A stretch of DNA of 10,813 bases, from the UHGV virus genome UHGV-0281911. The stretch is one strand, 5' to 3'. Each line of letters starts with the position of its first letter. Positions within the stretch are counted from its first letter, which is position 1. Position numbers and translations under genes: made by a program. This stretch comes from a virus. A model generated the notes under the pieces. The model ran no database searches and was not told the DNA's origin. It saw nothing but the letters and a program-made list of their open reading frames with translations. Of the stretch, positions 1,584 to 9,368 are shown one piece after another.

Positions 1584-1660
1584 TTACCCCTGAGGTAATT
1601 AAAAACCACATAAGACACGAAATCAATAGAGTTTAGAATATTTTATTACCTCACAGGTAA
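1584..1660 (-). promoter_or_regulatory. Repressor-controlled promoter module: operator (1646-1660), -35 TTGATT (complement of 1621-1626), 17-bp spacer, -10 TTTAAT (complement of 1598-1603), operator (1584-1598)
   Basis: Two TTACC-N5-GGTAA palindromes (TTACCCCTGAGGTAA, TTACCTCACAGGTAA) 62 bp apart centre to centre. Operator to -35 gap is 19 bp and -35 to downstream operator gap is 22 bp, identical to the PL-like module at 4639-4715. Confidence 0.5.
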
Positions 1661-1667
1661 TTATCGA

Positions 1668-1692
1668 GACGTAAAAAAATGCGCTATCGCGC
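1668..1692 (-). terminator. Possible weak intrinsic terminator after the P-like gene
   Basis: On the minus-strand transcript, a short GCGC/GCGC stem with GAUA loop is followed by a run of seven U (plus strand aaaaaaatgcgctatcgcgc). The stem is only 4 bp, so this is tentative. Confidence 0.3.
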
Positions 1693-2474: not shown

Positions 2475-3270
2475 CCCACACCCCTTCTATCCAGTCAGTG
2501 TTATTCCAGTCAAGCTCATCGCTTTTCCCGGCGTTTTTTGATTTTCCCCTGATATGATTTACGTGCCTGGCGAATTTTTGTTCCCACTGAACCTGCGTGA
2601 ACACTTTGCCCTCAGCCATCCAGTAATCCCGGAATGCAGCAAGTTCAGCAGGTGTAAATTCCGGTTCCGGCAGGGCCGTTCCCCACAGCGCAGCACGCCG
2701 TCGAAAATCCGGCGACGGATGCCAGCCATCGGTCATCGGAAATTTCCCGATGGGTTCACTCAGGCCATCCAGAAATTCAGGTTCAGCCACCTGCAACGGC
2801 ATACCGTTCGCTTCACTGGTCGGAGCACCCTCGCGCACGTGCGCTATGTGTGGGGTTTTATATATATCTTCCTCTTCCTCTGGTAACTCCTTTTGTAACG
2901 CTGTTGGCGTTACTTTTTGCGTTACTCGTTTTCGATGCTCTGCCACTCTTCTATTCGTAAGTGCACGTTTTTTCGATGATTCTCCATTGTGTCGCTCAAA
3001 GTTTGGAAGAATTAGTTTGCCGTCATGATAAGCAAGCCATCCGACGCTAATGAGGGCGTCAGCAAATCCTGTAATAAAAGCGAGTCTATCAAGTACTCCT
3101 TTTGTAACGCTGCCAGCGTTACCGTCTATTGTTTGCTGGTCAGCCCATGCCCATATACGAACCAGCTTTCCAAGAACAGCATCTGGATCAATACCCAGAA
3201 TTTCTGCTATCTGAAAAATTTCAGGTTTATCAGGAGTGATAACTTCAACCTTAATCCAGCTGCTTGCCAT
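2446..3270 (-). CDS. Phage replication initiator/organizer (O-like position) with DnaT-like C-terminal domain
   Basis: C-terminal GKFPMTDGWHPSPDFRRRAALWGTALPEPEFTPAELAAFRDYWMAEGKVFTQVQWEQKFARHV resembles E. coli DnaT C-terminus ([26 protein letters not shown]...[20 protein letters not shown]). Start placed at ATG 3270 (MASSWIKV) because AAGAGGGGAAACCT precedes it; the ORF-track start at 3288 has no Shine-Dalgarno. Confidence 0.8.
   Translation of the reverse strand: MASSWIKVEVITPDKPEIFQIAEILGIDPDAVLGKLVRIWAWADQQTIDGNAGSVTKGVLDRLAFITGFADALISVGWLAYHDGKLILPNFERHNGESSKKRALTNRRVAEHRKRVTQKVTPTALQKELPEEEEDIYKTPHIAHVREGAPTSEANGMPLQVAEPEFLDGLSEPIGKFPMTDGWHPSPDFRRRAALWGTALPEPEFTPAELAAFRDYWMAEGKVFTQVQWEQKFARHVNHIRGKSKNAGKSDELDWNNTDWIEGVWDEINSRTSQ
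2887..2913. repeat. Iteron-like repeat copy 1 (CTCCTTTTGTAACGCTGTTGGCGTTAC) inside the O-like gene
   Basis: Near-identical 27-bp copy at 3096-3122. Contains inverted arms GTAACGC/GCGTTAC, with a further GCGTTAC half-site at 2919-2925. Lies in the acidic linker-coding part of the gene beside an AT-rich stretch (ttttatatatatc). Confidence 0.5.
3096..3122. repeat. Iteron-like repeat copy 2 (CTCCTTTTGTAACGCTGCCAGCGTTAC), containing a perfect 19-bp palindrome GTAACGCTGCCAGCGTTAC
   Basis: Direct repeat of 2887-2913, 209 bp away. The two copies are translated in different reading frames of the same gene (VTPTALQKE versus NAGSVTKG), so conservation is at the DNA level. Confidence 0.5.
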
Positions 3271-3463: not shown

Positions 3464-3541
3464 TTTTTCCGCCTCTTTTTGTTATTGATATTGGATATTT
3501 TGCACAATTGGAAAATTTGATCAACCAGATTTGGTTTTTTA

Positions 3542-3556
3542 TTACCTTTGAGGTAC
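3542..3556. promoter_or_regulatory. Isolated operator-like palindrome TTACCTTTGAGGTAC (one half-site imperfect)
   Basis: Matches the TTACC-N5-GGTAA motif found at the immunity region. Lies immediately promoter-distal to the tR1-like hairpin. Confidence 0.3.
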
Positions 3557-3570
3557 GAATAGATATGAAA

Positions 3571-3590
3571 AGACCGCCGGGTGGCGGTCT
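3571..3590 (-). terminator. tR1-like intrinsic terminator downstream of the cro-like gene
   Basis: Inverted repeat AGACCGCC-GGGT-GGCGGTCT. On the minus-strand transcript the stem is followed by UUUUCAU. Lies 21 nt after the cro-like stop. Confidence 0.45.
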
Positions 3591-3611: not shown

Positions 3612-3842
3612 TCATGAGTAGAAGAAGTATGCCAGTTCTGCTTTTGAGCGCAGCCATTGTCTTGTTTTACAGGCTTTAAAAAGCCCATTCATCAATACTT
3701 TACCTGGCATTTTGCGCTTACCTGTTAAGTGAGTCTGGATATAGTGACTCGTCGTTCCGGCTTCCTGTGCGAAGGCTTCACGCTCATCCGGAGTAAGTGC
3801 AAGCCAGTGCTTTTTGAAATCGAAATGTCCGTTATCGCTCAT
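3612..3842 (-). CDS. Cro-like small HTH regulator
   Basis: 76-aa ORF with an HTH-like segment (LTPDEREAFAQEAGTTSHYIQTHLTGKR). Divergent from the repressor gene across an operator-rich intergenic region and followed by a terminator and replication genes, as cro is in lambda. Confidence 0.7.
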   Translation of the reverse strand: MSDNGHFDFKKHWLALTPDEREAFAQEAGTTSHYIQTHLTGKRKMPGKVLMNGLFKACKTRQWLRSKAELAYFFYS

Positions 3843-3867: not shown

Positions 3868-3941
3868 ATAATAAATATTCACCCATAAGGTAACAAAAAT
3901 CAAGGATAGTTACCTATGAGGTGCATTTACCTGTTGGGTAA
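3868..3941. promoter_or_regulatory. OR-like region: three operator palindromes (3879-3893, 3910-3924, 3927-3941) with a PR-like promoter for cro on the minus strand; a weak PRM-like promoter for the repressor probably lies just downstream (about 3954-3982)
   Basis: Sites TCACCCATAAGGTAA, TTACCTATGAGGTGC, TTACCTGTTGGGTAA. The minus strand reads TTGTTA-17 bp-TATTAT (complement of 3891-3896 and 3868-3873), overlapping the first operator. Plus-strand candidate TTGAAT (3954-3959)-16 bp-TATGAG would give a near-leaderless repressor mRNA. Confidence 0.5.
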
Positions 3942-3996
3942 TATTGCTTTAAATTGAATCATCTACTGATTCATATATGAGGCGATTTTCCAGAAA

Positions 3997-4581
3997 ATGA
4001 AAAGTATCCAGGACGTCCGCAGGCAAAATCTCAACGACTTGATCGACCGTGAATTCAATGGTGTTCAGACGCGGATGGCAGAAAAACTTGGAACTCAGGC
4101 AAATCTGGTAAACCGCTGGGCTCTTGGCAAGAAGGTTATCGGCGACCAGGTTGCGCGAAAAATTGAAGCTGCCGCCAATAAACCCCGTAACTGGCTTGAT
4201 ATCGATCGCTCGCTTTCTCAGGAGGGGTTTCAGCCTGTCGGCCCAAGCGACATTGGTCAGCTGGCGGCTCACAACCTGGAACGCTGGATGAGCGAAAGCC
4301 GCGACCTTTCAACGCAGGGAAAACTACACCGCGCATCCGGCGTCGCCCAGGTGACAATCAGCCGCCTGTTAAACAATGAAGTCAGCGTTTCCATTTCCAC
4401 CCTGGAGAATGTTGCATCCGCATTCGGGCGTCACGGCTATGAATTACTGATTCACCCGCACGACCCTGCGACTATCAACTATGACCGCTCGCGCTACGCA
4501 TTGTTACCCGAAACAGAGAAGGCAAAGATCGAAAGTTACATTGAATTTGTCATCAGCCAGAACGAAAGAAGCAAACAATAA
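3997..4581 (+). CDS. CI-like prophage repressor with two HTH (XRE-like) domains and no recognisable S24 peptidase domain
   Basis: 194 aa. N-terminal HTH QTRMAEKLGTQANLVNRWALGKK and a second HTH-like segment ASGVAQVTISRLLNNEVSVSISTLENVASAFG. I see no Ala-Gly/Ser-Lys LexA-like cleavage module. Divergent from cro-like and followed by a strong terminator. Confidence 0.8.
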   Translation: MKSIQDVRRQNLNDLIDREFNGVQTRMAEKLGTQANLVNRWALGKKVIGDQVARKIEAAANKPRNWLDIDRSLSQEGFQPVGPSDIGQLAAHNLERWMSESRDLSTQGKLHRASGVAQVTISRLLNNEVSVSISTLENVASAFGRHGYELLIHPHDPATINYDRSRYALLPETEKAKIESYIEFVISQNERSKQ

Positions 4582-4601
4582 AACTATAGTTTTCAGTAAG
4601 T

Positions 4602-4628
4602 AAGCCGCCTCATGGCGGCTTTTTTATT
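4602..4628 (+). terminator. Rho-independent terminator after the repressor gene
   Basis: AAGCCGCC-TCAT-GGCGGCTT stem-loop followed by TTTTTATTG, 20 nt after the repressor stop codon. Confidence 0.75.
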
Positions 4629-4638
4629 GCCAACAAGA

Positions 4639-4715
4639 TTACCTTATGGGTAATTTTTTTAACTCATATCTATTGACATCAAACCAAATACGCATAATTA
4701 TTACCTCAACGGTAA
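4639..4715 (+). promoter_or_regulatory. PL-like early promoter module: operator (4639-4653), -35 TTGACA (4673-4678), -10 AATTAT (4696-4701), operator (4701-4715)
   Basis: Perfect -35 hexamer with 17-bp spacing to an A/T-rich -10, flanked by TTACCTTATGGGTAA and TTACCTCAACGGTAA, which are 62 bp apart. Drives the plus-strand recombination operon. Confidence 0.55.
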
Positions 4716-5189: not shown

Positions 5190-6007
5190 AACCGGGAATT
5201 TATTTCGACATCAGCAACGAAGACTACCACGCCGGTGACGGCGTGAGTAAGTCGCAACTGGACATGGTTGCCAAGAATCCGGCGCTTCTTAAATGGGTTC
5301 AGGCAGCACCAGAAGACGAAGAGAAAAAGTCTGCACTGGATATGGGAACCGCATTGCACTGTCTGCTTCTGGAGCCTGGAGAATTCGACAAACGCTTCAT
5401 TGTTTCACCGAAGTTCGATCGTCGGACGAAACAAGGTAAAGCTGACGAAGAAGCATTTCTTCGTGATGTAGCGGATATGGGGATTACGGTACTTGATGCC
5501 GAGCAGTGGCGGAAACTGGAGCTGATGCGTGATAGCGCAATGGCTCACCCGGCGGCACGCTGGATGCTGGAAGCACCTGGTTACTGCGAAGCATCAATGT
5601 ACTGGAACGATGAAGAGACGGGTGAGTTGTGCCGAATTCGTCCAGACAAATGGCTGAACGAGCACAACGTGATCGTCGACGTGAAAAAGGTTGCAGATAT
5701 GGACCGTTTTGCACGTCACATCGAGGAATTCCGCTACCACGTGCAGGACGCAATGTACCGCGAAGGCGCAATGAGGATTACTGGTCAGCCGCATGGTTTT
5801 TTCTTTCTTGCCGTGAGCGAAAGCATTGATTGTGGTCGGTATCCGGTACGCGTGTTCGGGCTGGATGCGCCGGATGTCGATGCCGGGCACGCTCTGTTCC
5901 GCCGGGATCTGAATACCTATCACGAATGCCGCATCAGCGATGAATGGGGCGGCGTGGAAATTATTAAACGCCCTGAGTGGGCACGCAAACAGGATATGTA
6001 CGTATGA
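5186..6007 (+). CDS. PD-(D/E)XK exonuclease, RecE (exonuclease VIII) C-terminal-domain-like
   Basis: 273 aa. Candidate catalytic motifs IRPDKW and IVDVKKV. Preceded by GAGGGAAG and translationally coupled to the downstream annealase gene (ATGA at 6004-6007). Family is from memory (DUF3799 / PDDEXK-like). Confidence 0.7.
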   Translation: MKPGIYFDISNEDYHAGDGVSKSQLDMVAKNPALLKWVQAAPEDEEKKSALDMGTALHCLLLEPGEFDKRFIVSPKFDRRTKQGKADEEAFLRDVADMGITVLDAEQWRKLELMRDSAMAHPAARWMLEAPGYCEASMYWNDEETGELCRIRPDKWLNEHNVIVDVKKVADMDRFARHIEEFRYHVQDAMYREGAMRITGQPHGFFFLAVSESIDCGRYPVRVFGLDAPDVDAGHALFRRDLNTYHECRISDEWGGVEIIKRPEWARKQDMYV

Positions 6008-6921
6008 GCAACGAAATTGCAATCACCAATGATGTGTTGGCTATTCGGGGAATCGATGAAGTTACATGGAGCGCTCTGAAAAACAGTATTTACCCTGGGG
6101 CAAAAGATGAATCGGTAATGATGGCAGTCGATTACTGCCGGGCGCGTCAACTCGATCCTCTTCTTAAGCCGGTACACCTGGTACCAATGAGTGTTAAAGA
6201 CTCGAAGAGTGGAAAGAATGAATGGCGCGACGTGGTCATGCCTGGCATTGGACTTTATCGCATTCAGGCCTACCGTTCCGGCGATTACGCAGGCGCTAAT
6301 GAACCTGAGTTCGGTCCAGATGTAACACAAACGCTTTCAGGCGTGGAGGTTACCTTCCCTCAGTGGTGTAAGTACACCGTCAGCAAGCGAATGGCAAGCG
6401 GGGAAATCGTAGAGTTTAGCGCCAAAGAATACTGGATTGAGAACTATGCAACTGGGGGGCGTGACACATCGGCACCAAATGCCATGTGGAAAAAGCGCCC
6501 TTATGCGCAGTTGGCAAAATGCGCAGAGGCACAGGCATTACGTAAAGCATGGCCGGAGATTGGTCAACAAGCCACAGCTGAGGAAATGGAAGGTAAATAT
6601 ATCGACTCACCTGACATTATTGAACGTGACGTAACTCCAAGAAGTCAGGCAAAGCACGGCACAGCATCCAGCATGAACAGTCTGATCAACGCTAAAACAG
6701 TGAAAAAGCCTGATGAGCAAACGCGTAAAGCGGATAGCCGTGATCCAGAAGAAATGCTGATGGCCTTTACCAGCGCAGCGATGAATTACAGCACTGTCTC
6801 CGAACTGGATAAGGCTTACAAATACATTGCACAAAAACTTTCAGATGATGACGAACTGCTGGCAAAAGCCACCGACGTTTACAGCGTTCGTCGGGAAGAA
6901 TTAAACGAAACATCTATGTAA
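6004..6921 (+). CDS. RecT/Red-beta (Bet) family single-strand annealing protein
   Basis: Start ATG 6004 (MSNEIAITND). Segments DYCRARQLDPLLKPVHLVPM, VMPGIGLYRIQ and AMWKKRPYAQLAKCAEAQALRKAWPE parallel lambda Bet as I remember it (QYGLNPWTKEIYAFP, VVGVDGWSRII, GPWQSHPKRMLRHKAMIQCARLAFG). Paired with an upstream exonuclease. Confidence 0.8.
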   Translation: MSNEIAITNDVLAIRGIDEVTWSALKNSIYPGAKDESVMMAVDYCRARQLDPLLKPVHLVPMSVKDSKSGKNEWRDVVMPGIGLYRIQAYRSGDYAGANEPEFGPDVTQTLSGVEVTFPQWCKYTVSKRMASGEIVEFSAKEYWIENYATGGRDTSAPNAMWKKRPYAQLAKCAEAQALRKAWPEIGQQATAEEMEGKYIDSPDIIERDVTPRSQAKHGTASSMNSLINAKTVKKPDEQTRKADSRDPEEMLMAFTSAAMNYSTVSELDKAYKYIAQKLSDDDELLAKATDVYSVRREELNETSM

Positions 6922-6970
6922 CCACCACCGCGGCGCCACGCGCGCCGCACTGCAACCAAGAGAGGTATTT

Positions 6971-7219
6971 ATGAAAGGTGCATTAGGTAAGAAGGAACTC
7001 CTGGCGGTGGTGCCACTGTCATGGAGCACTATCGACCGTATGGAGCGCGCAGGTGAATTTCCTAAACGCTGGTATATCACTGACAAACGCTGCGCATGGA
7101 ACCGTGACGAAGTTGAGCGTTGGCTTGATGAACGTCAGGCAGCAAGCCCGGCAGAGTTCCAGGGTAAAAAGCCTCCTGTTCAGCAACGTGTATATCGTCC
7201 TGTGAGCAACGCTGCATGA
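6971..7219 (+). CDS. AlpA/Xis-family DNA-binding protein (putative excisionase or regulator)
   Basis: 82 aa with SWSTIDRMERAGEFPKRWYITDKRCAWNRDEVERWLDER, typical of AlpA-type excisionase-like winged-helix proteins. Preceded by AGAGAGG. Confidence 0.7.
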   Translation: MKGALGKKELLAVVPLSWSTIDRMERAGEFPKRWYITDKRCAWNRDEVERWLDERQAASPAEFQGKKPPVQQRVYRPVSNAA

Positions 7220-7361
7220 GTGTGCTGCTAAGGCACTGGAGCAAATGGTCAGGATGGTACTTATTCCTGGCCTCTGTTTCAGCATGGCTTTATCTGCTGG
7301 CATTAATTTTCAGAGAGGGTTGGATTAAGTGAGAAAGTTAAGCCGACTTGAAAAATATCAC

Positions 7362-7628
7362 ATGAATAAGGTTTCAATGCGCAGTCCGTCAAAGATTGTC
7401 GCCGTTACTCCTGCGGCGATAGAGATCGAAAAACGCGCGATTGAAAGAGAGAAAAAAGGGCAATTCCGCATTGCCGCTCACCTTTGGCTTCAGTGTATGG
7501 ATGTTGCTTCTGGTGATGTTGAACGTGCAAGGATCGCGGTTCGCAGGGACCAATGTATCACAAAAGGTAACGGCCTTCGCCGTGGCGACTATAGCGGCAT
7601 AGGATGTTGCGGGGTGGTTTATGAATAA
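7362..7628 (+). CDS. Small protein, possibly PerC-family transcriptional regulator; start uncertain (ATG 7362 or 7377; the ORF-track start 7329 is a GTG right after an in-frame stop)
   Basis: The segment EKKGQFRIAAHLWLQCMD...ERARIAVRRDQC follows the G-x-W/F-R-x-A-A-x-x-W-L...RR..C pattern I recall for PerC/Pch proteins. No search was run. Confidence 0.45.
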   Translation: MNKVSMRSPSKIVAVTPAAIEIEKRAIEREKKGQFRIAAHLWLQCMDVASGDVERARIAVRRDQCITKGNGLRRGDYSGIGCCGVVYE

Positions 7629-7656
7629 TCAAAACAATAATGTAAAAGGTAATATC

Positions 7657-8724
7657 ATGAGCAAGGTAGGCGATTATTTCTTTGAATTTCCCGCATCACG
7701 AGGAACGCAGGGAAGCACTGTAATACTTATGATGACAGTACCAGCAAGAGCACTATCGAGAGTATTGGCAACCGACAATACGGGAAGTACCCTTGAACGT
7801 TCTCAACGTGAAATTAATCCAACCAGGGTAAAAAAGTTTTATCAATATTTAGTCAACGCTTACGAGAAAAAGGAACCATTTATTGTTCCACCATTGGTCG
7901 GAAATTGTAACTCAGAAATAGAGTTCCATGAGATTGGAAATACTAATGTCGGTTTAGCTAGATTTCCTATGGATGCAGAAATAAAATTATTTGATGGACA
8001 GCATCGTGCTGCAGGATTAGCTGAGTTCTGCCGTAATTATGGCGAAACAATTATGATTCCTCTTATGCTTACGCATAACCTTCCTTTGAAGGCGCGTCAG
8101 CAGTTCTTTTCTGACATTAATAATAATGTTTCAAAACCATCTGCAGCAATTAATATGGCGTATGACGGACGAAACGATGTTGCCCAAGAAATGGTGTCTT
8201 TCCTGTCGCAACATGACACTTTTGCAGAAGTCACTGACTTCGAGCACAACGTTGTTCCGTCAAAGTCAAACATGTGGGTGAGTTTCAAAGCATTAAGTGA
8301 TTCAACATCAAAATTTTGTATTCATAATGGGAAAAAACTAGAAATTGGTAACATCGAGTCAGTATGGGAATCATGGTTATGTCTTACACAACTAGAAGCA
8401 ATTCGCCATGGTACAAAGCAATCAGAATACAAAAGAGAATATATCCAGTTTCATGCAGTGATGATTAACGCTTTTGGCTATGCTGTTCAGCAAATGATGG
8501 TTAATCACTCAATAAAAGAAATAATTTCAATGATTGAAACATTATGTGCAAATACTGACTTCGCAGAAAGAGAGAATTTTTTCCTAATGGATAATTGGGT
8601 TGGGATCTGCACGAAAGCAAGCCAGGAAAAACTATCAGTTATTGCCAATGTAGCAGCACAGAAAGCGGCAGCAAACAGGCTGATACAAGCCTTTACCAAA
8701 GGAAGTCTGGGAGCAGAACAATGA
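7657..8724 (+). CDS. DGQHR-domain protein (DndB-like, ParB/Srx superfamily); alternative start at ATG 7621
   Basis: Exact DGQHR motif in KLFDGQHRAAGLAEF, N-terminal YFFEFPASRGTQG and a downstream FFSDINNN motif. ATG 7657 is preceded by AAAAGG with a 7-nt spacer. The stop overlaps the methyltransferase start (ATGA at 8721-8724). The gene is markedly AT-rich. Confidence 0.8.
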   Translation: MSKVGDYFFEFPASRGTQGSTVILMMTVPARALSRVLATDNTGSTLERSQREINPTRVKKFYQYLVNAYEKKEPFIVPPLVGNCNSEIEFHEIGNTNVGLARFPMDAEIKLFDGQHRAAGLAEFCRNYGETIMIPLMLTHNLPLKARQQFFSDINNNVSKPSAAINMAYDGRNDVAQEMVSFLSQHDTFAEVTDFEHNVVPSKSNMWVSFKALSDSTSKFCIHNGKKLEIGNIESVWESWLCLTQLEAIRHGTKQSEYKREYIQFHAVMINAFGYAVQQMMVNHSIKEIISMIETLCANTDFAERENFFLMDNWVGICTKASQEKLSVIANVAAQKAAANRLIQAFTKGSLGAEQ

Positions 8725-9368
8725 AAAAATACACGCTAATCTATGCAGATCCACCCTGGGTATACCGGGACAAAGCCGCAGATGGTAATCGCGGTGCCGG
8801 TTTTAAATATCCGGTTATGAGTGTGCTGGATATCTGCCGCCTTCCTGTGTGGGATTTGGCCGATGAAAACTGTCTGTTGGCCATGTGGTGGGTGCCAACA
8901 CAACCACTCGAAGCACTAAAAGTTGTTGAAGCCTGGGGATTTCGTCTGATGACCATGAAGGGCTTCACGTGGATAAAATGTGGTAGTCGACAACCAGATA
9001 AACTGGTTATGGGGATGGGACACATGACTCGCGCCAACAGTGAAGATTGCCTGTTTGCGGTAAAGGGAAAACTACCTCCGCGCATTAATGCAGGTATCGT
9101 TCAGTCATTTACCGCACCGCGGCTTGAGCATTCAAGAAAACCAGATGTCGTTCGTGAAAAACTTGTGCAATTGTTAGGCGATGTTTCTCGCATTGAACTG
9201 TTCGCCCGCCAAACGTCTCATGGCTTCGATGTTTGGGGTAATCAGTGCGAAGACCCAGCAGTGCAACTACACCCTGGATACGCGTTGTATATTGCCGGAT
9301 TAACAAATGCATTCAGCAATGCTCCGCTGTCACCAACAGACAACCAGGGGCGGGAGCGTGCAGCATGA
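8721..9368 (+). CDS. MT-A70 family N6-adenine DNA methyltransferase
   Basis: Catalytic DPPW motif near the N-terminus (MKKYTLIYADPPWVY). 215 aa. Translationally coupled to both the upstream DGQHR gene and a downstream small ORF. Confidence 0.85.
   Translation: MKKYTLIYADPPWVYRDKAADGNRGAGFKYPVMSVLDICRLPVWDLADENCLLAMWWVPTQPLEALKVVEAWGFRLMTMKGFTWIKCGSRQPDKLVMGMGHMTRANSEDCLFAVKGKLPPRINAGIVQSFTAPRLEHSRKPDVVREKLVQLLGDVSRIELFARQTSHGFDVWGNQCEDPAVQLHPGYALYIAGLTNAFSNAPLSPTDNQGRERAA

Follow-up and report, generated by a model that had tools for sequence, protein, structure and literature searches.

The eight copies of the palindrome TTACC-N5-GGTAA found in the early region of an E. coli prophage that is epsilon15/phiV10-like (Uetakevirus) are, with a probability that we put at roughly 0.85, operators of the Rep-type immunity repressor that is encoded between them at 3997-4581. 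The assignment of these sites to the 194-aa repressor had been proposed in an earlier note on this DNA, and it draws support from the homology of the protein to Rep, from the annotation of epsilon15, from the conservation of the palindrome arms and their positions in relatives, and from the intergenic location of the motif throughout the prophage genome. The window, i.e. the whole stretch of 10,813 nucleotides that was analysed, is 97-98% identical to the Escherichia phages phiV10, TL-2011b, ZX5 and HEMP4 and 77% identical to Enterobacter phage Tyrion, and it has a 100% match in a 40-kb prophage that avian E. coli chromosomes carry between yfgI and guaA. The five phages named are members of Uetakevirus, the genus of epsilon15-like podoviruses. 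Transcription units diverge within the window: the minus strand carries the cro-like gene, a 70-aa gene, DnaT-like and lambda-P-like replication genes, a DUF1064 gene and ead-like genes, in this order, and the plus strand carries the repressor gene followed by small ORFs and by genes for an exonuclease, RecT, an AlpA-like protein, a PerC-like protein, a DGQHR protein and an MT-A70 methylase. The integrase gene occupies the right end of the window on the minus strand, and an Rfam scan of the window matched no known RNA family.

All eight palindromes listed in the earlier note are present, five of them as perfect copies of TTACCNNNNNGGTAA (at 1584, 1646, 3927, 4639 and 4701) and three in imperfect form, at 3542, 3879 and 3910 with one, one and two mismatches, respectively. 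The idea that they arose by chance or from the composition of A/T-rich intergenic DNA, and have no regulatory role, has the A/T richness of such DNA in its favour and nothing else, and we regard it as vanishingly improbable. In 200 dinucleotide shuffles the expectation for the exact pattern was 0.00 and the maximum 0, against the five copies seen, and with up to two mismatches the window holds 14 matches against 2.9 +/- 1.8 expected. Every one of the eight sites is intergenic, and together they are confined to four stretches summing to 572 bp; the remaining six two-mismatch matches are dispersed in coding DNA at a frequency close to chance. At the site starting at 4639 (OL-up), the arms are invariant in 38 distinct variants drawn from 82 phiV10-type IMG/VR loci, and variation is confined to the N5 spacer and to the flanking 10 bp upstream, which amounts to a clear footprint. 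Shuffles, footprint and the conservation of the positions across genera effectively refute an origin by chance. A further candidate at 3718 (two mismatches, within the cro-like gene) was set aside as probably fortuitous, its conservation being confined to the phiV10 group.

The robust half-site consensus is (A/T)TTACC-T with a central A/T, and the ACC core is kept in 32 of 32 half-sites in the parent prophage. The longer half-site TTACCTCA advanced in the earlier note turned out to be weak, as it occurs strictly in 3 of 16 half-sites and in 5 when imperfect arms are allowed. The layout that had been described, with three sites between the cro-like and repressor genes and one pair each flanking a PL-like and a third promoter, is supported, and the members of both pairs (1584/1646 and 4639/4701) are indeed exactly 62 bp apart, start to start. 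The count of three operator regions has to be raised to four, because the site at 3542 stands alone behind a terminator and forms a region of its own. In order of position, the features are as follows, with promoter positions read from sequence throughout.

1584-1598, no strand: O_A-down, predicted operator (TTACCCCTGAGGTAA, perfect), overlapping the predicted start site as well as the Shine-Dalgarno sequence of the minus-strand DUF1064 gene.
1598-1626, minus strand: P_A, putative promoter, with -35 TTGATT (1626-1621), a 17-nt spacer and -10 TTTAAT (1603-1598).
1646-1660, no strand: O_A-up, predicted operator (TTACCTCACAGGTAA, perfect), 62 bp from O_A-down and at about -62 from the predicted P_A start.
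1673-1692, minus strand: putative terminator downstream of the replication P gene, GCGC-GATA-GCGC and then T7; a terminator is annotated at the equivalent place in phiV10.
3496-3524, minus strand: P_B, putative promoter for the 70-aa and replication genes, TTGATC-N16/17-CAAAAT in six lineages aligned by eye.
3542-3556, no strand: O_B, predicted operator (TTACCTTTGAGGTAC, one mismatch), standing alone and immediately downstream, on the minus strand, of the terminator of the cro-like gene.
3571-3590, minus strand: terminator after the cro-like gene, from the terminator scan and the phiV10 annotation.
3612-3842, minus strand: gene for the cro-like 76-aa HTH protein (phrog_35, transcriptional repressor, E 5.6e-13).
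3868-3903, minus strand: PR, predicted promoter of the cro-like gene, in two readings that are both overlapped by OR1.
3879-3893, no strand: OR1, predicted operator (TCACCCATAAGGTAA, one mismatch), within the spacer of the PR core promoter.
3910-3924, no strand: OR2, predicted operator (TTACCTATGAGGTGC, two mismatches), 31 bp from OR1.
3927-3941, no strand: OR3, predicted operator (TTACCTGTTGGGTAA, perfect), 17 bp from OR2.
3997-4581, plus strand: repressor gene (194 aa), a homologue of SPC32H Rep with N-terminal HTH DNA-binding, middle HTH-like dimerisation and C-terminal tetramerisation/Ant-binding domains.
4602-4621, plus strand: terminator after the repressor gene, from the terminator scan and the phiV10 annotation.
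4639-4653, no strand: OL-up, predicted operator (TTACCTTATGGGTAA, perfect), at about -62 from the PL start and next to a T-rich UP-like tract.
4673-4701, plus strand: predicted PL-like promoter, TTGACA-17-AATTAT, matching 10 of 12 consensus positions.
4701-4715, no strand: OL-down, predicted operator (TTACCTCAACGGTAA, perfect), centred on the predicted PL start and 62 bp from OL-up.

The identity of the repressor is clear from a phmmer search of the PDB, in which its residues 1-190 align with residues 2-197 of SPC32H Rep (5D50_A, E 4.5e-42). Pfam returned HTH-type matches only, HTH_3 at 106-147 and a weak YdaS-like match at 21-61, and found no peptidase S24 autocleavage domain in the 194-aa protein; the second 'HTH' noted by the annotators of phiV10 corresponds to the dimerisation domain of Rep. 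Over five lineages that share 42-78% identity, 66 columns of the repressor are invariant, the C-terminal domain included, and both the NLVNRW stretch of the recognition-helix region and the C-terminal tetramerisation residues are fixed in all five. According to secondary descriptions in two papers, SPC32H Rep comprises an N-terminal DNA-binding, a middle dimerisation and a C-terminal tetramerisation/Ant-binding domain, it is a tetramer on palindromic DNA, each palindrome is bound by a pair of DNA-binding domains from different dimers, and the protein is not cleaved but disassembled by the antirepressor Ant (PMC9638917, PMC9986798). The second paper also equates the C-terminal fold with the looping tetramerisation domain of Rco and p53, and it calls the mechanism of repression by Rep poorly characterised (PMC9986798). 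By homology, the repressor encoded in the window would be a tetramer as well. An Ant homologue of 85 aa is encoded in the parent prophage outside the window (L100, positions 8946-9295), and upstream of its gene lie a perfect LexA box, TACTGTATAAATATACAGT, and one predicted Rep operator.

These components suggest the following regulatory logic. The paired N-terminal HTH domains of Rep would read the two ACC arms of a palindrome, whose centres are 10 bp or one helical turn apart, and four regions of the window would come under the control of Rep: a tripartite OR and three cassettes built on the plan of terminator, -62 operator, promoter and +1 operator. PL and P_A, the latter upstream of the DUF1064/nin-like genes, would represent complete cassettes, and P_B, which serves the replication genes, would have the upstream operator only. 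In the lysogen, occupancy by Rep would directly silence PR, PL, P_A and P_B as well as promoters outside the window. DNA damage would lead to the cleavage of LexA and the release of Ant, which would in turn pull Rep off the DNA.

The OR region separates the divergently transcribed cro-like and repressor genes, and OR1 would act in the PR core with OR2 and OR3 placed toward the repressor gene. PR can be read either as TTGATT (3903-3898)-17-GAATAT (3880-3875), which is kept in relatives, or as TTGTTA-17-TATTAT, which was returned by the promoter scan. OR1 is imperfect in every lineage compared. For the repressor gene itself the promoter scan gave no convincing sigma-70 match on the plus strand; the best candidate for its -10 element is a conserved TAATAT (3939-3944) that adjoins OR3. 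The overlap of this hexamer by OR3, the strongest of the OR sites, is awkward for sustained repressor synthesis.

As an alternative, the palindromes could chiefly be the targets of the 76-aa Cro-like protein or of some other regulator, e.g. the PerC-like activator. The Cro-like protein, for which Pfam gave no match, is an HTH protein in a PHROG family of transcriptional repressors, lambdoid Cro proteins have operators in common with the repressor, and the upstream sites of the cassettes lie at about -62, the classical position of class I activators. However, the same arms occur where the recognition helix of Rep, NLVNRW, is conserved, and the curators of epsilon15 assigned their sites to the repressor; moreover, sites placed over +1 or in a -35/-10 spacer suit repression rather than activation, and sixteen sites at nearly every transcription unit suit a master repressor. 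We consider it improbable that a regulator other than Rep is the principal reader. The Cro-like protein may share the OR sites with Rep, which would complement operator function for Rep rather than compete with it.

The case for Rep as the reader extends well beyond the early region. The scan of the whole prophage that the earlier note had proposed yielded 16 sites in the 40-kb parent (allowing one mismatch, or two if intergenic). Intergenic DNA, which makes up 8.4% of the prophage, holds 14 of them (binomial P = 9e-14), and the remaining two follow closely on a terminator and immediately precede what is probably the true start of terS. Outside the window, sites are located before terS, before the head genes, in the interval between the tailspike gene and ant, around the BRO-N gene, where the two members of an operator pair are 93 bp apart, and upstream of int. 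PhiV10 and SPC32H have equivalent sites and one more, between the O-antigen acetylase gene and the lysis genes, to which the scan of the present prophage found no counterpart. Since sites are predicted at nearly every transcription unit, Rep looks like a master repressor.

When nine lineages are stacked, PL and region A turn out to have a common cassette, which consists of a terminator, 10-25 bp of variable DNA, the upstream operator, 19 nt of A/T-rich UP-like sequence, a -35 element (TTGACA or TTGATT), a 17-nt spacer and a -10 element whose last T is the first base of the downstream operator, as is seen directly at PL. The centres of the two operators are near -62 and near +1. P_A was absent from the output of the consensus promoter scan, and it has the geometry of PL in all nine stacked lineages; the terminator at 1673-1692 was not listed by the terminator scan because its stem is short. 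In region A, the GAGG arm of the downstream operator appears to double as a ribosome-binding site. PL and P_A have sequence in common (CTATTGA...) and are probably paralogous cassettes, and their identical spacing does not therefore constitute independent evidence. At region B the single operator O_B lies ~61 bp upstream of the predicted P_B start and has no downstream partner. A PRE-like promoter on the plus strand of region B (TTGATC-17-TATTAC, antisense to the cro-like gene) was rejected as the conserved feature, because its -35 element reads AAGATC in 5 of 5 relatives and it is the minus-strand TTGATC-N16/17-CAAAAT that is conserved.

Equivalent sites are found at corresponding positions in Tyrion, BUCT554, Klebsiella phage BUCT711, SPC32H, epsilon15 and six bacterial genomes, the prophages concerned being those of Superficieibacter, Erwinia, Klebsiella, Citrobacter and Scandinavium. 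The conserved places are the pair before the DUF1064 or resolvase gene, the lone site after the terminator of the cro-like gene, the OR trio and the pair after the terminator of the repressor gene. Arms and positions are maintained although the identity of the repressors is 41-78%, and flanks and N5 spacers vary freely. Spacing in the OR of relatives is 30/31 + 17 bp, and the operator pairs at PL and at the second lytic promoter are 61-63 bp apart. Among the 88 collected loci in which the OL pair could be scored, the spacing is 62 bp in 83, 61 bp in 2 and 63 bp in 3; for the region-A pair, scored in 82 loci, it is 62 bp in 81, 61 bp in 1 and 63 bp in 0. A scan of IMG/VR for pairs at any spacing from 47 to 77 bp gave 96 distinct sequences at 62 bp, 14 at 63 bp and at most 8 at each other value, counts that do not represent independent events since the sequences are phylogenetically related. 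A diverged lineage has OL pairs of 74 bp in four loci, where the downstream operator has shifted by +12 bp and the upstream operator is still 19 nt away from the -35 element; in one locus a 2-bp upstream change has produced an OL pair of 64 bp. Distant loci of Hydrogenovibrio, Thiomicrospira and Paraburkholderia, which match only the N-terminal domain of the repressor, are devoid of TTACC-N5-GGTAA sites and so have no bearing on the motif.

A tetramer of Rep has two DNA-binding units, such that one tetramer could bind both operators of a pair. With 62 bp, or 5.9 turns, between them, the operators at -62 and +1 face roughly the same side of the helix, and their joint occupancy would place the core promoter inside a small loop. 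Same-face binding or looping, as suggested in the earlier note, is consistent with this spacing. That a single Rep tetramer does hold the two operators together, with the core promoter in a very small loop, is a tentative proposal to which we give slightly less than even odds. It seems rather unlikely that each lytic promoter is clamped by a Rep tetramer in a loop of ~62 bp, and that the repeated cassette thereby gates every transcription unit without an antitermination cascade in the style of lambda. Spacings of 31, 62 and 93 bp correspond to 2.95, 5.9 and 8.9 helical turns, and at 10.5 bp per turn the observed spacings of 53, 61-64 and 74 bp depart from whole turns by no more than ~0.2 turn; as a guide to helical phase, such natural variants are sparse, phylogenetically dependent and not decisive.

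The spacing can also be accounted for in the absence of cooperation through a loop. Here the 62 bp would be the sum of two constraints, each relative to the promoter and passed on together with a promoter cassette that was duplicated. At about -62 and next to a terminator, the upstream site would cover the UP-like A/T tract or stop read-through, and the downstream site at +1 would block RNA polymerase. The 74-bp OL pairs argue for this account, as they arose by displacement of the downstream site alone with the 19 nt to the -35 element kept, so that the 62-bp spacing may be a by-product of the two constraints. The 64-bp locus with its 2-bp upstream change, the occurrence of O_B at ~-61 without a downstream partner, the placement of every upstream operator 10-25 bp after a terminator and the probable paralogy of PL and P_A point in the same direction. 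Furthermore, indels are rare throughout the cassettes, which makes constant spacing weak evidence for phasing. On the other side, Rep homologues are tetramers with two DNA-binding units and a fold that is linked to looping in Rco of pLS20, all the spacings are near integral helical turns, and a lone site at -62 is a poor position for a repressor. Independent action of the two operators is plausible on this balance, about as likely as looping and still short of probable.

As operators of Rep, the palindromes are not without precedent in the databases. The epsilon15 record (AY150271.2) carries seven 'protein_bind - repressor - lysogeny' features with the sequence ATTACC-N5-GGTAAT, an annotation of repressor binding that is itself a prediction; they cover the OL pair (62 bp), the upstream member of the junction-resolvase pair, and sites that precede terS, the head genes and the tailspike gene. 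The phiV10-type records examined and the SPC32H record have no annotated repressor sites, and the paper on ZX5, a phage with 98% identity, defines no operators. A full-text search for written forms of the motif found none, in a corpus whose coverage does not extend to the original publications on epsilon15 and SPC32H. Within the genus Uetakevirus, the motif, the repressor family and the mechanism of induction are already known; what is added here is the phiV10-type immunity group, where the predicted sites are unannotated, and a comparative description of the conserved geometry.

These results do not overturn the current understanding and provide another example of a known switch. Pathogenic E. 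coli, namely O157, avian and K1 strains, often carry phiV10-like prophages. A defined set of operators has predictive value, both for the genes that are silent in the lysogen, including O-antigen modification and the methylase/DGQHR cargo, and for cross-immunity among related phages. The conserved geometry (17, 31 and 62 bp; about -62 and +1) offers templates for examining in what way a 'trans' tetramer holds two palindromes and whether tiny loops arise.

Compared with the SPC32H/epsilon15 type, the system has in common a repressor that is homologous over its full length, the TTACC/GGTAA arms and an Ant homologue behind a LexA box. The layout is likewise the same: OR has three sites, the OL pair and the pair that precedes the DUF1064/RusA-type gene are each spaced 62 bp, a lone site follows the terminator of the cro-like gene, and sites lie before terS, the head genes, ant/tailspike and int. 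As for the differences, the repressor is only 42% identical, the A/T content of N5 is 0.70 here versus 0.81-0.89, T is preferred at position 6 where the other type has A or T, OR1 and OR2 are 31 rather than 30 bp apart with a degenerate OR2, and the third OL site of epsilon15-type phages, 76 bp downstream of the pair, is absent.

The resemblance to lambda CI and Cro lies in the position of the repressor gene between OL and a tripartite OR with divergent transcription of the cro-like and repressor genes, in an OL that governs the leftward recombination/excision operon, and in palindromic operators with HTH readers. Unlike lambda, the repressor has no S24 autocleavage domain and induction would proceed via an antirepressor; OL has two sites 62 bp apart with the promoter between them instead of three adjacent ones; the OR spacing is 31 + 17 bp; and there appear to be additional Rep-controlled promoters behind terminators and ~16 sites genome-wide. 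In this last respect the prophage calls to mind P1 C1 and the 'stoperators' of mycobacteriophage L5 gp71, where one repressor acts through many dispersed sites and controls most transcription units, and the P1 system also employs antirepressors. The P1 and L5 sites are asymmetric, and those of L5 are orientation-dependent and located inside transcribed regions, whereas the sites of the present prophage are palindromic and are found at promoters or after terminators. With Rco of pLS20 ('TetDloop'), LacI at O1-O3 and GalR, Rep would have in common a tetrameric state and operator pairs that flank promoters at near-integral helical turns. The candidate loop of 62 bp would be shorter than the classical natural loops, which measure 92 bp in lac and 113 bp in gal.

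The arms of the predicted Rep operators, TTACC-N5-GGTAA, are the same in the window (3879-3941) and in L003 (4239-4300), a comparison locus with an epsilon15-type Rep, even though the two repressors are only 42% identical; the operator differences between these stretches are limited to the N5 spacer. Identical arms at this level of repressor divergence raise the question of cross-immunity between phiV10-type and epsilon15-type phages. The arms are also retained in a more diverged Rep lineage with the recognition region QPNLVSRW, represented by four IMG/VR contigs (L104, L106, L122 and L197), in which the operators of the OL pair, flanking the PL-like promoter, are spaced 74 bp apart. In L122 a further pair, spaced 53 bp, precedes the replication-distal genes, with a third operator 20 bp beyond it.

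A single operator, O_B (window 3542-3556), follows the terminator 3' of the cro-like gene and lies about 61 bp upstream of P_B, a conserved promoter-like element on the minus strand (window 3496-3524), where no downstream partner operator for O_B is present. Looping of O_B to OR1 (window 3879-3893), 337 bp away, might allow a lone upstream site to repress P_B; alternatively, O_B might do so by occluding an UP element.

Three features of L100, the complete parent prophage of about 40 kb, lie outside the window and are given in L100 coordinates:

5722-8841, tailspike, annotated as an endosialidase
8842-9295, Ant homologue with its upstream sites
31300-31440, region upstream of terS, with two operators, a terminator and an ATG

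An 85-aa protein of the parent prophage is a homologue of the SPC32H antirepressor Ant. A perfect LexA box, TACTGTATAAATATACAGT, lies upstream of its gene, as does a further Rep operator (at 8946), so the parent prophage appears to use the LexA-Ant-Rep route of induction. Upstream of terS, two operators spaced 18 bp apart are placed between the terminator and the probable true start codon of terS, an ATG; the start given by RefSeq (31413), upstream of the terminator, looks mis-called. No obvious sigma-70 promoter was found in this upstream region. The tailspike annotation, together with the presence of O2:K1:H5 avian strains among the closest genomes, suggests that the parent prophage is a K1-capsule-specific member of Uetakevirus.

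The DnaT-like replication gene contains a 28-nt direct repeat (window 2886-2913 and 3095-3122), whose copies are 89% identical, 209 bp apart and built around the palindromic core GTAACGC-N5-GCGTTAC. The repeats may serve as origin iterons, like those inside lambda O.

Two further gene arrangements bear comparison with related phages, the first of them at:

7621-9368 (window), DGQHR-domain (DndB-like) gene followed by an MT-A70 methyltransferase gene, adjoining the integrase

Unlike the window, phiV10 is without the DGQHR gene, while SPC32H carries a similar gene labelled 'DNA-sulfur modification'. The exonuclease and RecT are encoded in the window by two separate, overlapping genes (at 5977-6007), whereas the phiV10 record has one fused 'recET' ORF in their place.
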